Shown here piece by piece: positions 57,124 through 60,179 of a DNA stretch of 64,000 bases (position 1 is its first letter; each line of letters opens with the position of its first letter). The notes below the pieces were generated by a model. That model was given only the letters and a program-made list of their open reading frames with translations. It was not told the DNA's origin and did not search any database. The stretch is from positions 6,610 through 70,609 of the IMG/VR virus record IMGVR_UViG_3300011113_000736; one strand, 5' to 3'. Both the position numbers and the translations under genes were made by a program. Origin of the DNA: a virus.

Positions 57124-57196
57124 CTCCTATATGTGCTGATTTGTGTTTTGGTATCAGCAGACCGATTTGGTCTTTCGCAACCATTGCAATCGACCT
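57124..57196 (-). ncRNA. Conserved structured 5' leader, copy 1
   Basis: Lies between the TTGACA-17-TAGAAT promoter and the SD; shared with three other genes. Confidence 0.7.
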
Positions 57197-57202
57197 GAGT
57201 AA

Positions 57203-57231
57203 ATTCTAGCAAAAAAAACGAGATATGTCAA
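57203..57231 (-). promoter_or_regulatory. Consensus sigma70 early promoter (representative of about 16 between 53.2 and 64 kb)
   Basis: TTGACA-17 nt-TAGAAT with extended -10 TG. Confidence 0.88.
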
Positions 57232-57299
57232 GTGTGAAAATAGAAAAACCCCACTTGGTGGTATGCCAAGTGGGGTTATGTGAGTTTGTGTTTTGCTAA

Positions 57300-57485
57300 T
57301 CAAGCCCCTAATGGGGTTTCATTGATTTGTTCATTGAACTTGGTATTAGCAAGTTCTTCTTTTCTTGTTATTTCCCTTTTGGGAAACTTTTCAGGATGGC
57401 AGATTCCGCATTGTGCATGACCGCAATCATGCTTATGGGATTTCCATTGCCTACCTTTGAATTTCTGAGACATATGCCTTCTCAT
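57300..57485 (-). CDS. Small basic Cys/His protein
   Basis: CGHAQCGICH; own promoter. Confidence 0.6.
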   Translation of the reverse strand: MRRHMSQKFKGRQWKSHKHDCGHAQCGICHPEKFPKREITRKEELANTKFNEQINETPLGA

Positions 57486-57623
57486 TTCATCTTCTCCTAT
57501 CAGCGACAGCCATTGTCGCTTGTTTAATTGTATCGTGGATTAGATAGTTAGTCAAGTGCAAAAATAAAAAAAACCCCACTTGGTGGTATGCCAAGTGGGG
57601 TTATGGAGTTTAGGATTTAGGGT

Positions 57624-57959
57624 TTACCACCATCCTTTCAGATGATGATTTTGTTTACCATGTTCGACAAACATTTTGACTAGATCGTTGTATTCTTGTT
57701 CGTCAATGTTGTGGGTGAACCCAAACAATGAGTCCCACCTCTTATTTTTAAGACTTTCTGCCATTTGCTTGACAGTTTCAGCGGGAATCAGTTCTTGGTA
57801 GAGACTGACTCCGGTAACGGAGATTACAAGTTGCTCGTAGACTTTGCCCCGGAACGATGAGTTTCCGTGATCTGACAGCATTCCGCCGCAGATGCGGAAT
57901 TCGCCGGGAATGGTTGCCGGCTCATCGTTCTGATCCCGCCAGAAGTTATCAAGACCCAT
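57624..57959 (-). CDS. Hypothetical early protein
   Basis: Start MGLDNFW; SFRGKVY motif. Confidence 0.7.
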   Translation of the reverse strand: MGLDNFWRDQNDEPATIPGEFRICGGMLSDHGNSSFRGKVYEQLVISVTGVSLYQELIPAETVKQMAESLKNKRWDSLFGFTHNIDEQEYNDLVKMFVEHGKQNHHLKGWW

Positions 57960-57966
57960 CTTAGTT

Positions 57967-58040
57967 CTCCTATATGTGCTGATTTGTGTTTTGGTATCAG
58001 CAGACCACTTTTGGTCTTTTGCAACCATTGCAATCGACCT
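57967..58040 (-). ncRNA. Conserved structured 5' leader, copy 2
   Basis: Near-identical to copy 1. Confidence 0.7.
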
Positions 58041-58144
58041 GAGTAAATTCTAGCAAAAAAAACGAGATATGTCAAGTGTGAAAATAGAAAAACCCCACTT
58101 GGTGATAAGCCAAGTGGGGTTATGTGAGTTTTGTGTTTTGCTAA

Positions 58145-58885
58145 TTAGGCAAACTTGCTCCTGCTGGCGAGTTTGTTTGCCAGCCTGCCGTTGAAGGGTT
58201 TCGGCATAACTGTGCCGAAACGGTTGATATTGACTTGTGTGGTTGTGGAGTAGGTTTCTCCAATTTCAAGGTTAAGGGCATCTTGTTTAGCCCAGAGTTC
58301 AAAGAAGTCCCCTTCATGGGGACCATCTGTTGCTTGGAAGGTATGAATTGTCTGTGGACCGAATTGTCCGTTGATATCCTTCTTCTCAAGAAGGACGAGA
58401 TTCAAAGTGTACCTTCCGGGTGTGACGATACGCCCTTCGACTTTCTTTTCTGTTTTTGGAGTTTCATTATCCTTGATAACCTTTGGCAACCAGACCAATA
58501 GGGACAGTTGATCTGGTTGAACCTTTTCGGTGCGGAAGCAATTTAGGAAAGCGTTCCTGACATTTTCCTGAAAATTGTCTCCCGGTCGGGTAGAGTTGGG
58601 CACAAAGGTCATGCCCTTGTTGATGACTTCTTCAACCTTTGCCACCACATCAGCGGAGAATTGGTTTTCTCCGTCTTGAATGGCTTGCGAAATGATTTCT
58701 GCTGTGGAAGGCACACCAAGGCGTTCAGCCTTGGACTTTCCTAAAATCTCCGTCGCCTGAATGGCGTGAGCCAATACAGCCTTGAAATCGTTTAGAGTGA
58801 TCTTGGCGTTAGAAGGCTTTGTTGCCTTCTTGGTGGTGTTGGTGTTGGCAATCATAGCGGAAACATTCTTCTTAGAAGTAGCCAT
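58145..58885 (-). CDS. Hypothetical early protein (possible C-terminal OB-like domain)
   Basis: 246 aa; FGPQTIHTF...LEIGETY. Confidence 0.7.
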   Translation of the reverse strand: MATSKKNVSAMIANTNTTKKATKPSNAKITLNDFKAVLAHAIQATEILGKSKAERLGVPSTAEIISQAIQDGENQFSADVVAKVEEVINKGMTFVPNSTRPGDNFQENVRNAFLNCFRTEKVQPDQLSLLVWLPKVIKDNETPKTEKKVEGRIVTPGRYTLNLVLLEKKDINGQFGPQTIHTFQATDGPHEGDFFELWAKQDALNLEIGETYSTTTQVNINRFGTVMPKPFNGRLANKLASRSKFA

Positions 58886-58893
58886 TTGTTAAT

Positions 58894-58964
58894 CTCCAAG
58901 TGCTGATTTATGTTTTGGTATCAGCGAACCACTTTTGGTCTTTTGCAACCATTGCAATCGACCT
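58894..58964 (-). ncRNA. Conserved structured 5' leader, copy 3
   Basis: Same leader behind a different promoter (TTGACA-17-TAGCAT). Confidence 0.7.
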
Positions 58965-58995
58965 AAGACCATGCTAACAAATCATTGCGGATTTG

Positions 58996-59238
58996 TCAAC
59001 TATTTTTTTCGATTTGTTTTTTCACAAACCTACGAAATCTCTCCCTGTAGTTTCTATCTTTCGATGCTTTGTCCTCAAGGTTGTTAAGACACTTAGGACA
59101 AACTTTGTAATTGGGTTTTTCTCCTGATAAGGCGAGCATTACTAGAGACACAAAGTCTCTATTGTGAAGAGGGCACCGGCAAACGGTACACTCTTGCCAC
59201 ATTTCAAGGCGCATGGACATTTGCATTTGCATTTGCAT
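58996..59238 (-). CDS. Small zinc-finger protein
   Basis: CTVC...CPKC. Confidence 0.6.
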   Translation of the reverse strand: MQMQMQMSMRLEMWQECTVCRCPLHNRDFVSLVMLALSGEKPNYKVCPKCLNNLEDKASKDRNYRERFRRFVKKQIEKNS

Positions 59239-59481
59239 TGTGTTTCCCTCTTGTGTCATTGCCACCTTGGCTTGACACATACATTATAACAAAAAATTAA
59301 GATTTAGTCAATATCAATATATTTTCGATTAAATGACCTTCTTTGGGGTTATTGTGTTTTAATGGGGGTCAGGTTGATTTTAGGAAAATCTAACGATTTA
59401 GGGTCAATTTTGCTTGTGGAAATAAAAAACCCCCACTTGGTGGTATGCCAAGTGGGGTTAAGTGGGTTTGTTTTTTGCTAA

Positions 59482-60102
59482 TTAGCAGTAATGTGGGCGA
59501 TAGTTGCCTGAGTGGTTTTCGCCGGGGAACCACTCGGTGGTTATCCAAAATTCGTTTGGACCGTCTGGTTCTGGAAGGAAGTCTGGTTCAAGTCCACGAG
59601 CTTCCAGCCAGTCAAGGGAGTCGGCAAGGTGCCGATTATGTTGATCTCTTTGGGCGTTATTGAGTTCTTCAGCGAGTTGTCGCATTTCCTCTCTGATTTG
59701 GTAGGCTTGCTCTTGGTTTTCGCACTCATAAGACTGTTGGAGATATGAGGAAGTATACCACCAACCTCCTTCTTCTGGACCTCCGTATTGGTCACAGGAG
59801 TCATAGATTGATATGTATTTGTAGGGTGGTTGGATTCGTGTGCCGTATTCGCATTGGCACACTTCTCCTTGGATTCCGTCGCAAGTATATTCGCAATTTT
59901 TTATATTTTGACAACGCCCATCCTTGAAGTCAGGGACTTTACAATTACACTTATTGGTGATTTGGTGGTTACAATGACCACAAATCATTTGTGGTCTATC
60001 AATTTCATAATATTCTTCTTCGATTTTGTAAACATCAAAGACTTTCTTCAAATTATACTTCTGTGCGATGGTTTGAAAGGACTGCTGATTGAACTTAGCC
60101 AT
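59482..60102 (-). CDS. Hypothetical Cys-rich early protein
   Basis: YGGPEEGGWWY motif. Confidence 0.7.
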   Translation of the reverse strand: MAKFNQQSFQTIAQKYNLKKVFDVYKIEEEYYEIDRPQMICGHCNHQITNKCNCKVPDFKDGRCQNIKNCEYTCDGIQGEVCQCEYGTRIQPPYKYISIYDSCDQYGGPEEGGWWYTSSYLQQSYECENQEQAYQIREEMRQLAEELNNAQRDQHNRHLADSLDWLEARGLEPDFLPEPDGPNEFWITTEWFPGENHSGNYRPHYC

Positions 60103-60109
60103 TATATTT

Positions 60110-60179
60110 CTCCTATATGTGCTGATTTGTGAATTGGTATCAGCGACCATTTTTGGTCATAACCACCTTGGTTTGACCT
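60110..60179 (-). ncRNA. Conserved structured 5' leader, copy 4 (first stem replaced)
   Basis: Inner stem AACCA/TGGTT instead of TTGCAA/TTGCAA; 3' half conserved. Confidence 0.7.

Follow-up and report, generated by a model that had tools for sequence, protein, structure and literature searches.

In a 64,000-nt stretch of viral DNA (IMG/VR record IMGVR_UViG_3300011113_000736, positions 6,610 to 70,609; hereafter the window, whose own numbering is used below), four early-type units on the minus strand are built as PeSL-type cassettes, PeSLs being short composite terminator/promoter units of T4-type phages, and carry a conserved leader with two hairpins, here called P1 and S2. The two hairpins are real, and the pseudoknot and the switch that a preliminary description had seen in the leader are unproven. 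We consider it probable, though not strongly so, that the four copies are the transcribed part of the cassettes, within the 5' untranslated region (UTR), with P1 acting as a stabiliser and the module around S2 as a recognition element.

Four copies of a two-hairpin leader

The preliminary description had placed four conserved leader copies on the minus strand of 57124-60179, and all four were found there. They share a 26-nt core, GCTGATACCAANNCANAAATCAGCAC, located at 57133-57158, 57976-58001, 58900-58925 and 60119-60144 on the minus strand; these 4 matches compare with 0.00 expected in 100 shuffles, and a fifth copy was not found across the whole 70.6-kb contig. Each of the four units consists of a near-consensus sigma-70 promoter, a leader of 77-81 nt, a strong Shine-Dalgarno sequence (SD) and an ATG, with the predicted +1 through the ATG spanning 60179-60100, 58964-58883, 58040-57957 and 57196-57113. 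The leaders at 60179, 58964, 58040 and 57196 (copies A to D) precede open reading frames (ORFs) of 206, 246, 111 and 158 amino acids, respectively, which are referred to as p206, p246, p111 and p158. Predicted terminator stem-loops (10-12 pairs and a T run) lie immediately 5' of the promoters of copies A, C and D, whereas the promoter of copy B abuts the stop codon of an upstream 80-aa gene without an intervening terminator. The parts of the four units are given below, with the minimum free energy (MFE, in kcal/mol) and z of each leader.

60229-60255, minus strand: terminator 5' of the copy A promoter, 10 pairs and a T run
60186-60214, minus strand: copy A promoter, TTGACA-N17-TACAAT with a TG-extended -10, 11 of 12 hexamer matches
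60103-60179, minus strand: leader copy A, before p206 (ATG at 60102); MFE -17.6, z -3.25
60155-60178, minus strand: P1 of copy A, GGUCA-AACCA-AGG-UGGUU-UGACC
60146-60149, 60139-60144, 60135-60138 and 60121-60126, minus strand: 5' strand of S1 (UGGU), 5' strand of S2, ACCA and 3' strand of S2 in copy A
60110-60114, minus strand: SD of copy A, AGGAG
58971-58999, minus strand: copy B promoter, TTGACA-N17-TAGCAT, 10 of 12 hexamer matches
58886-58964, minus strand: leader copy B, before p246 (ATG at 58885); MFE -18.3, z -3.35
58937-58963, 58928-58931, 58920-58925, 58916-58919 and 58902-58907, minus strand: P1, UGGU, 5' strand of S2, ACCA and 3' strand of S2 in copy B
58894-58897, minus strand: SD of copy B, GGAG
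58047-58121, minus strand: copy C terminator (58091-58121) and promoter (58047-58075, TTGACA-N17-TAGAAT)
57960-58040, minus strand: leader copy C, before p111 (ATG at 57959); MFE -18.5, z -2.98
58013-58039, 58004-58007, 57996-58001, 57992-57995 and 57978-57983, minus strand: P1, UGGU, 5' strand of S2, ACCA and 3' strand of S2 in copy C
57967-57971, minus strand: SD of copy C, AGGAG
57203-57277, minus strand: copy D terminator (57247-57277) and promoter (57203-57231)
57116-57196, minus strand: leader copy D, before p158 (ATG at 57115); MFE -18.2, z -3.00
57169-57195, 57161-57163, 57153-57158, 57149-57152 and 57135-57140, minus strand: P1, (C)GGU, 5' strand of S2, ACC(A) and 3' strand of S2 in copy D
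57124-57128, minus strand: SD of copy D, AGGAG

The analysis of the long leader was based on six copies, the four in the window and two on the related metagenome contig L066. In all six, the MFE and centroid structures were the same two-hairpin fold (z -2.86 to -3.38), in which P1 begins at the predicted +1 and S2, a hairpin of 6-7 bp with an A/C-rich loop of 12-13 nt, ends 4-6 nt before the SD. The anatomy reported earlier was confirmed: the 5' hairpin has GGUC/GACC closing pairs, its inner stem UUGCAA/UUGCAA is replaced by AACCA/UGGUU in the copy at 60179, and S2 is formed by GCUGAU/AUCAGC (6-7 bp) around a 12-nt A/C-rich loop in the window copies. A gap of 1-2 nt separates UGGU from S2, and the first bases of the S2 loop are ACCA. 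The leader said to lie behind a different promoter is the copy at 58964 (TTGACA-N17-TAGCAT, no terminator before it). The consensus of the resulting module, which we refer to as the GGU/S2 module, is (U)GGU-N1-2-GCUSAU-ACCAA-N2-3-CAYAAAU-SAGCA, or ~33 nt.

The GGU/S2 module is conserved beyond its flanks

Three classes of leader were distinguished in the window and its relatives. Class A is a simple hairpin; class B is compound, with an inner CA-UGG/UGU-UG hairpin that is enclosed by closing pairs (GGUC/GACC in the long leaders of the window, AGGUGA/UCACCU in relatives); class C, the long leader, is class B followed by the GGU/S2 module. Outside the window, class C was found on L066 alone, in two copies. 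Since these precede orthologues of p206 (48.6% amino acid identity) and p246 (45.9%), the comparison between the window and L066 is an orthologous one. Codon position 3 was 37.2% and 39.2% identical in this comparison, close to saturation, and within the same cassettes the promoter was 65-72%, P1 59% and the segment from S2 to the ATG 42-56% identical. The spacer plus S1/S2 module, in contrast, was identical at 29/36 and 29/37 positions (78-81%). The module is thus conserved beyond promoter, P1, SD spacer and synonymous sites, which makes some sequence-specific function likely. Judged from these alignments, the GGU/S2 module is constrained at the sequence level, the unpaired ACCAA and CAYAAAU included.

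Compensatory pairs were also present in the six-sequence alignment: one at the base of P1 (C-G to G-C), two in the inner stem of P1 and one in S2 (G-C to C-G). Overall, 97.2% of the alignment cells were paired, versus 18.6-44.9% when the partners were slid by 1-3 columns. Compensatory changes with pairing kept support both P1 and S2 as RNA helices.

The preliminary description had further interpreted the leader as an undescribed cis-regulatory RNA that co-regulates four early genes. A structured element acting at the RNA level, with covarying P1 and S2, is in line with our data, and the Rfam covariance-model comparison that had been suggested gave no match on the leaders, neither at the gathering score nor at E up to 10 over 56900-60400. 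The Rfam hits listed at E up to 10 lie on terminators, promoter/terminator intergenic regions or coding sequence; His_leader (60157-60257) and AbsR25 (60176-60257), on the opposite strand, merely touch the 5' end of copy A. Co-regulation, on the other hand, is not implied by the repetition, for the reason given in the next section. A blastn search of GenBank phages with the region returned no match, and an IMG/VR scan with the exact core gave 0 matches. Looser IMG/VR patterns were tried as well and their results rejected: a core pattern that let S2 covary gave 22 loci, all of them chance occurrences without a promoter or a complementary S2, and the pattern GGU/ATACCAA/CAYAAAT gave 2 loci, both by chance.

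The long leaders belong to PeSL-type cassettes that probably exchange their parts

The IMG/VR contig that contains the window (70.6 kb, CheckV completeness 16%) encodes T4-type structural proteins (Portal_T4, E 3.4e-72; Gp23 major capsid, E 4.7e-86) and a T4-type terminase N-terminal domain (E 7.7e-05). These genes place the phage in the T4 superfamily, and the source is an uncultured T4-like phage. The four long leaders lie within an array of cassettes that share a common plan, whose members are listed here.

55654-63983, minus strand: array of 14 early-type cassettes, each with promoter, 5' hairpin leader, SD, small ORF and usually a terminator
after the promoters at 63983, 62409, 62137, 61296, 60687, 59311, 57555 and 56272, minus strand: simple-hairpin leaders

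The 14 predicted minus-strand promoters in 55654-63983 each agree with the hexamer consensus at 10 or more of 12 positions, with 17 nt between -35 and -10, and 13 of them have a TG-extended -10. With a stricter promoter expression, 13 of the 16 matches of the 64-kb window fell within 56272-63983. Near-identical terminators recur in the array (AACCCCACTTGG..CCAAGTGGGGTT followed by a T run, of the GGGG/CCCC type), and terminator, promoter and leader were duplicated as a single block, with up to 98% identity over 122 nt. This highest value was found for copies C and D (58010-58131 versus 57166-57287, 98% over 122 nt, terminator and promoter included).

This organisation is close to that of the PeSLs, which have been described in T4-type phages as composites of a terminator/promoter with an AT-rich upstream region and, at the 3' end, an SD and ATG; clusters of them occur among the small ORFans of hyperplastic regions, where they bring about gene insertion, deletion and replacement (PMC4122927, PMC2839356). 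The likeness to the PeSLs of RB49/phi1, PST/T4 and nt-1/KVP40 extends to the T4-like host genome, the short composite units between small ORFans, a terminator stem-loop with G/C runs, a TTGACA-N17-TAnAAT promoter, the SD plus ATG, and perhaps an association with the swapping of genes between relatives. The window units share with PeSLs the T4-like genome, a near-consensus sigma-70 promoter, a joined terminator stem-loop (copy B, without a terminator, is the exception) and the 3'-end SD/start with repeated units.

The main difference lies downstream of the promoter. In their accessible text, published PeSLs are described without a structured transcribed leader, and a count of the terms 'leader' and 'downstream of the promoter' in that of PMC2839356 gives 0. 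In RB49 (AY343333), the type phage for PeSLs, the leaders are unstructured (-1.6 to 0.0 kcal/mol) at all 5 promoters whose spacer contains a GGGG..CCCC stem-loop. The cassettes of the window, in contrast, have a 5'-terminal hairpin in nearly every unit and the conserved GGU/S2 module in four. Given the unstructured leaders of RB49 and the silence of the accessible PeSL text on leader structure, the transcribed hairpin appears to be an addition to the published cassette. The placement of the DNA stem-loop differs too: in RB49 the GGGG..CCCC stem-loops lie inside the 17-nt spacer between -35 and -10 (58388-58416, 115005-115033, 117137-117165 and 121708-121736), while in the window they are found upstream of the promoter.

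Leaders appear to have moved between units. The orthologue of p206 has a class A leader in the related loci L006, L063 and L064 and a class C leader in the window and L066, and the class C leader in L066 is driven by a promoter variant that elsewhere drives class A. Since the p206 orthologue can have a simple-hairpin leader, the long leader would be modulatory rather than essential for its genes. Contigs of related strains pointed in the same direction: in those from run X8 the match to the window ends right after S2 (57134 and 60118) and continues into a different SD/start region, and a contig of run X10 has a copy-C-type leader in front of the p158 coding region, with 40 letters at the joint fitting both copies. 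Among the sequencing runs listed, twenty, from 13 studies, contain the whole stretch or a portion of it. These contigs are short and broken at repeats, so that no complete insertion or deletion was seen, and 3 of 4 joints, with sides of less than 30 letters, were not used. Taken together, the differing p206 leaders and the strain contigs point to a module boundary at the 3' end of S2 and to an exchange of leaders between units, as predicted for PeSLs. Duplication and recombination of PeSL-type cassettes explain both the copy number and the presence of one leader before unrelated genes. Conversely, because repetition before unrelated genes is expected of PeSL cassettes, it is not itself evidence of co-regulation.

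The same observations led us to consider a passive repeat, in which PeSL duplication and gene conversion have spread a generic structured 5' UTR that has no specific reader of S2. The 98% identity of the block of copies C and D with its terminator and promoter, the exchange of the p206 leader among orthologues (long in the window and L066, simple in L006, L063 and L064), the X10 contig and the documented role of PeSLs as recombination substrates (PMC2839356, PMC4122927, in the text accessible to us) would all fit such a repeat. It fails to account for a module that is 78-81% identical where promoter, P1 and SD spacer are 42-72% and codon position 3 is 37-39% identical, and both differences inside S2 are compensatory. 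Conservation of the module over its flanks together with compensatory change in S2 points to selection on the module specifically, and we therefore regard the passive repeat as improbable. If it were correct, the four leaders would be an ordinary example of cassette duplication.

Resemblances to the S2 loop were also seen at the other end of the units. The 3' UTRs that precede the repeated terminators (56586-56650, 57247-57300, 58091-58144 and 59431-59482, minus strand) have UUAGCAAAACACAAA in common, a sequence similar in the same orientation to the S2 loop CCAAAACACAAAU, and CAUACCA occurs in three terminator loops and resembles the AUACCA at the start of the S2 loop. From the sequences, these likenesses may reflect shared ancestry, a shared binding motif or chance.

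5' hairpins are a general feature of the array and of related loci

Nearly every promoter of the array is followed, ~5-8 nt after the -10, by a hairpin, and the four long leaders are a sub-class within this larger family of 5' leader hairpins. Relatives were identified through the DUF932 protein encoded in the array (two IMG/VR contigs and six metagenome contigs, 72-85% amino acid identity) and share this arrangement. We surveyed the window and 7 related loci, which together gave 97 promoter units and 65 distinct 46-nt downstream sequences. Of these 65, 61 fold at -6 kcal/mol or below and 49 have z of -2 or below, with the first paired base at a median of +5 after the -10. An apex of the form CA..UG or CAA..UUG was present in 42 of the 65, on 37 different apical stems, and a GGC-(A)ACUUC-GCC apex in 7 more, DUF932 leaders included. 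Loops of the P1 type are mostly UGG or AGG in the window, and AUGGA, AUGGC, ACGGA, AAGGC or AUGUC in relatives. An IMG/VR pattern combining promoter and apex matched 32 loci, and among these a cassette array was present only on the two contigs already known as relatives.

That many distinct lower stems stay paired under a conserved apex argues for an RNA hairpin and not for the DNA operator of one protein. We nevertheless weighed the idea that the inverted repeats of P1 and S2 act at the DNA level, as repressor operators or as hairpin or cruciform targets for cassette recombination. It draws on the symmetric change in S2, which also keeps dyad symmetry, and on the similarity between strains, which breaks exactly at the end of S2. 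A single DNA-binding protein, however, could not read all 37 apical stems with pairing kept; moreover, the elements occupy +1 to +65 of the transcript with fixed spacing to the -10 and the SD, and loop length varies from 3 to 5 nt within the family, which is unusual for a dimeric operator. A DNA-level role is in our judgement very improbable.

Hairpins at the 5' terminus are well known to stabilise bacterial mRNAs, and the 5' UTR of Escherichia coli ompA is an example of such a stabiliser, for which no particular loop sequence is needed. The leaders described here are similar in having a hairpin within a few nt of the predicted 5' end and a strong, unpaired ribosome site downstream. They differ in the conservation of their CA(A)-loop-(U)UG apex (42 of 65 distinct leaders); conservation of the apex over differing lower stems suggests that something reads the apex too. 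The GG loops on short A-U-closed hairpins upstream of the SD are reminiscent of the GGA hairpins bound by CsrA/RsmA, and AUGGA and ACGGA are among the loops of relatives. This reading was rejected for the window, where the loops (UGG or AGG) are without a GGA core and no CsrA domain was found on the contig. An upstream mini-ORF starting at the AUG in the P1 loop was likewise rejected, since some copies leave its reading frame open as far as the gene and others close it.

A search with covariance model R1 over the window's contig and the L006 record returned the 4 window copies and weak matches. One of the latter, at 31 bits, is the leader of the ParB region of L006 (10920-10990, plus strand); homology is not established, and it was not counted. 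The ParB-region leaders (L006 10920-10990, plus strand; window ~54690-54780, minus strand) have a 5' hairpin with a CAUGUUG/CAUGGUG apex and a second hairpin abutting the SD, which in L006 is GCCAGU/ACUGGC without a GGU:ACC match. They are alike in architecture to the long leader and different in sequence.

The proposed pseudoknot and switch

The preliminary description had proposed that the module folds into an H-type pseudoknot, in which the free UGGU pairs with ACCA in the S2 loop (S1), and that a competing pairing between GACC and the downstream GGUC would disrupt S1. With regard to the first proposal, S2 is supported by one compensatory pair. S1 is GGU:ACC plus a U:A pair in 4 of 6 copies, i.e. 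three invariant pairs with zero compensatory changes; it reaches 4 bp in every window copy except the one at 57196 (CGGU), which, like one of the two L066 copies, has 3 bp. When the same spacers and loops were shuffled, 4-21% of the shuffles allowed spacer and loop to pair in a Watson-Crick helix of 4 bp or more, and 36-76% in one of 3 bp or more. Helices of the length of S1 are therefore common by chance, and S1 alone is not above that level. Thus, of the proposed pseudoknot the S2 half is backed by the alignment, and S1, being short, invariant and within the range of chance, is not.

The question remained whether the module might still be an H-type pseudoknot that controls the translation of a regulon of early genes, either as an operator comparable to that of T-even gene 32 or as a switch. 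Its geometry would be S1 (U)GGU:ACC(A), a first loop (L1) of 1-2 nt, S2 of 6-7 bp and an A-rich third loop (L3) of 8-9 nt, and a short L1 over a stem of this length with an A-rich L3 is a workable and plausible arrangement for a pseudoknot. GGU and ACC are invariant in 6/6 copies from two lineages with saturated synonymous sites; the distance from GGU to S2 is held at 1-2 nt, next to a spacer on the P1 side that differs between copies in both its bases and its length; and both strands of S1 are free in the predicted ensemble, where P1 and S2 dominate. The pseudoknot of T2 gene 32 likewise has two coaxially stacked stems (PMC3014915). These arguments have to be set against the lack of compensatory changes in S1, the fourth pair broken in 2/6 copies, and the frequency of such helices in the shuffles. 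In addition, GGU could pair equally with the ACC of P1, so that its conservation does not single out S1.

The comparison with gene 32 can be made more specific. According to PMC3014915, the gene 32 operator lies 67 nt upstream of the start codon of the single-stranded DNA-binding protein (SSB) and nucleates cooperative binding of gp32 to an unstructured stretch rich in A+U, with which the ribosome site overlaps. The window leaders have in common with the T2/T4/RB69 operators, as portrayed there, a T4-superfamily phage, a position in the 5' leader of an early or middle mRNA, and proposed stacked stems with a short first loop. Here, however, the element ends 4-6 nt before the SD, leaving a gap unlike the long A+U-rich tract of gene 32, and the SD itself is not occluded. 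At least four unrelated genes have the element in their leaders, and none of the four downstream genes (0/4) is a gp32 homologue. Two of the three features compared thus fail, as the element is not on an SSB gene and has no A+U-rich tract, and membership of the gene 32 operator class, at least as defined by that text, was dropped. Altogether, we think of a pseudoknot operator as a tentative possibility that is on balance unlikely.

The competing pairing, GACC(A):(U)GGUC, is present in the sequence, but its predicted ensemble probability is 0.00-0.14 versus 0.85-1.00 for the base of P1, it shows no covariation, and L066 has lost the outer pair with no compensating change; thermodynamically it is a minor alternative. 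The mean unpaired probability of the SD was 0.62-0.96 in the window copies and ~0.5 in L066, where GUCC and GGAU pair weakly, an interaction without a conserved counterpart in the window. A terminator-like U tract 3' of S2 was not found in the window copies. With the SD mostly unpaired and no U tract after S2, no expression platform like that of a riboswitch or an attenuator is evident, and a switch between the base of P1 and the competing pairing is unsupported.

The same facts bear on whether the leader could be a small-pseudoknot riboswitch of the preQ1-I or SAM-II style, or an antitermination RNA like put or nut. Its ~33 nt, H-type topology and A-rich L3 do recall the smallest pseudoknot riboswitches, as two hairpins in ~65 nt directly after an early promoter recall the put RNAs of HK022. 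Yet the leaders matched no Rfam family even with the E limit raised to 10, sequestration of the SD is lacking, and the downstream genes are unrelated ORFans without a metabolic link; as to antitermination, every downstream unit has its own promoter, which leaves nothing obvious to achieve. We consider either function extremely improbable.

Downstream genes, candidate readers and a possible mechanism

No Pfam family, gp32 included, was found for p206, p246, p111 and p158, and 7 of the 8 ORF products scanned were without a Pfam match. In PHROGs, p206 belongs to phrog_24642 (E 2.2e-22) and p158 to phrog_15009 (E 0.0017), both families of unknown function. Closer homologues of p246 in the protein collection have 89% and 76% identity, an Atlas search returned hypothetical phage proteins only, and its AlphaFold2 model is of low confidence (pLDDT 51.4). 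An alignment search with p246 and a search with p206 gave no match in IMG/VR; a protein search there with p246 gave one weak match (28%), on an AT-rich 437-kb contig without the motif, which was judged spurious. An antisense partner of the S2 loop was also looked for, with 0 plus-strand matches in the window. Neighbouring early genes encode an 80-aa protein with a zinc ribbon and a basic tail (58996-59238) and a basic protein of 61 aa (57300-57485), which may be taken, arbitrarily, as initial candidates for a reader of the leader.

If the leader is a stabiliser followed by a recognition element, its action may be pictured as follows. Transcription would start at the first base of P1, and P1 would shield the triphosphate 5' end from 5'-end-dependent decay, so that early mRNAs are stabilised. 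The GGU-N1-2-S2 module would serve as a post-transcriptional recognition element beside the ribosome site: a phage or host factor would bind it, possibly after GGU:ACC closure into a small H-type pseudoknot, and this reading would tune the translation or stability of a subset of early genes. Duplication and recombination of cassettes in a plastic early-gene region would have brought the same leader before unrelated genes.

Several points weigh against this picture. The role of P1 as a stabiliser is drawn from general knowledge of bacterial 5'-terminal stem-loops, and the transcription starts were predicted from the -10 alone. No binding factor was identified, the four downstream proteins being Pfam-less, and no CsrA or RegA Pfam domain was detected on the contig, which represents ~16% of the genome (the RegA control likewise matched nowhere). 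Only two independent lineages are available, the window and L066, because homogenisation makes the copies of one genome alike, and every compensatory change probably stands for a single event. S2 has two variants, and the symmetric change between them keeps a DNA palindrome as well as an RNA helix. Finally, the cassettes are mobile, so that part of the module's similarity could stem from horizontal exchange or gene conversion. This last objection is countered by the much greater divergence of the flanks inside the same cassette, as a recent transfer would need to have moved the 33-nt module alone.

PeSLs are known as DNA-level shuffling modules that supply a promoter and a terminator to any gene behind them, and our results indicate that such a cassette can also bring a conserved structured 5' UTR. 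Genes swapped in would thereby obtain more stable mRNAs and perhaps come under a common translational control. Should the S2 module be read by a protein or form a pseudoknot, it would be a compact and portable element of post-transcriptional control, and a handle on a regulator of early expression in many uncultured T4-like phages. A more far-reaching version, which strikes us as rather unlikely, is that GGU-S2 constitutes a new small pseudoknot-forming operator on mobile PeSL cassettes and that the CA-UGG-UG apex hairpin, at the 5' end of most early mRNAs, is a second tag for this or a different factor. With an operator riding on a PeSL, a gene dropped behind the cassette would join at once a post-transcriptional regulon under one phage or host protein.

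Other features of the window

The DUF932 protein gene (62488-63468, minus strand; E 2.8e-45, phrog_1221) is located in an early cassette of its own, with a leader hairpin of the GGC-ACUUC-GCC type, and its product, with 82-85% identity in relatives, is conserved far above those of neighbouring genes. The DUF932 family is known from the leading regions of plasmids and integrative and conjugative elements. At lower window coordinates, a ParB-like gene with ParB_N and HTH_ParB domains adjoins a 31-nt repeat (52353-53515 and 53622-54656, minus strand). This repeat has seven copies with the core AGACGACATAGTAGTCTACA, four of them at a spacing of 47-48 nt, and an extra copy of the core is found near 54970-54990. 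The repeat set is a candidate for an array of the partition type, or one that binds ParB, carried by a T4-like phage.

Elsewhere in the window, the T4-type portal gene (5908-8436, minus strand) encodes an intein splicing domain at residues 121-336 (E 4.3e-14), an ORF at 14180-15742 (minus strand) has a Peptidase_M4 domain, i.e. the catalytic domain of thermolysin-type metallopeptidases (E 1.2e-06), and one tRNA gene, tRNA-Asn (GTT), is located at 38728-38803 (minus strand). Three large paralogous ORFs lie side by side at 40841-46612 (plus strand); two of the three have multiple ankyrin repeats (Ank_2, E 3.8e-31 and 2e-30), and the middle one contains 90-nt tandem repeats (43467-44398).

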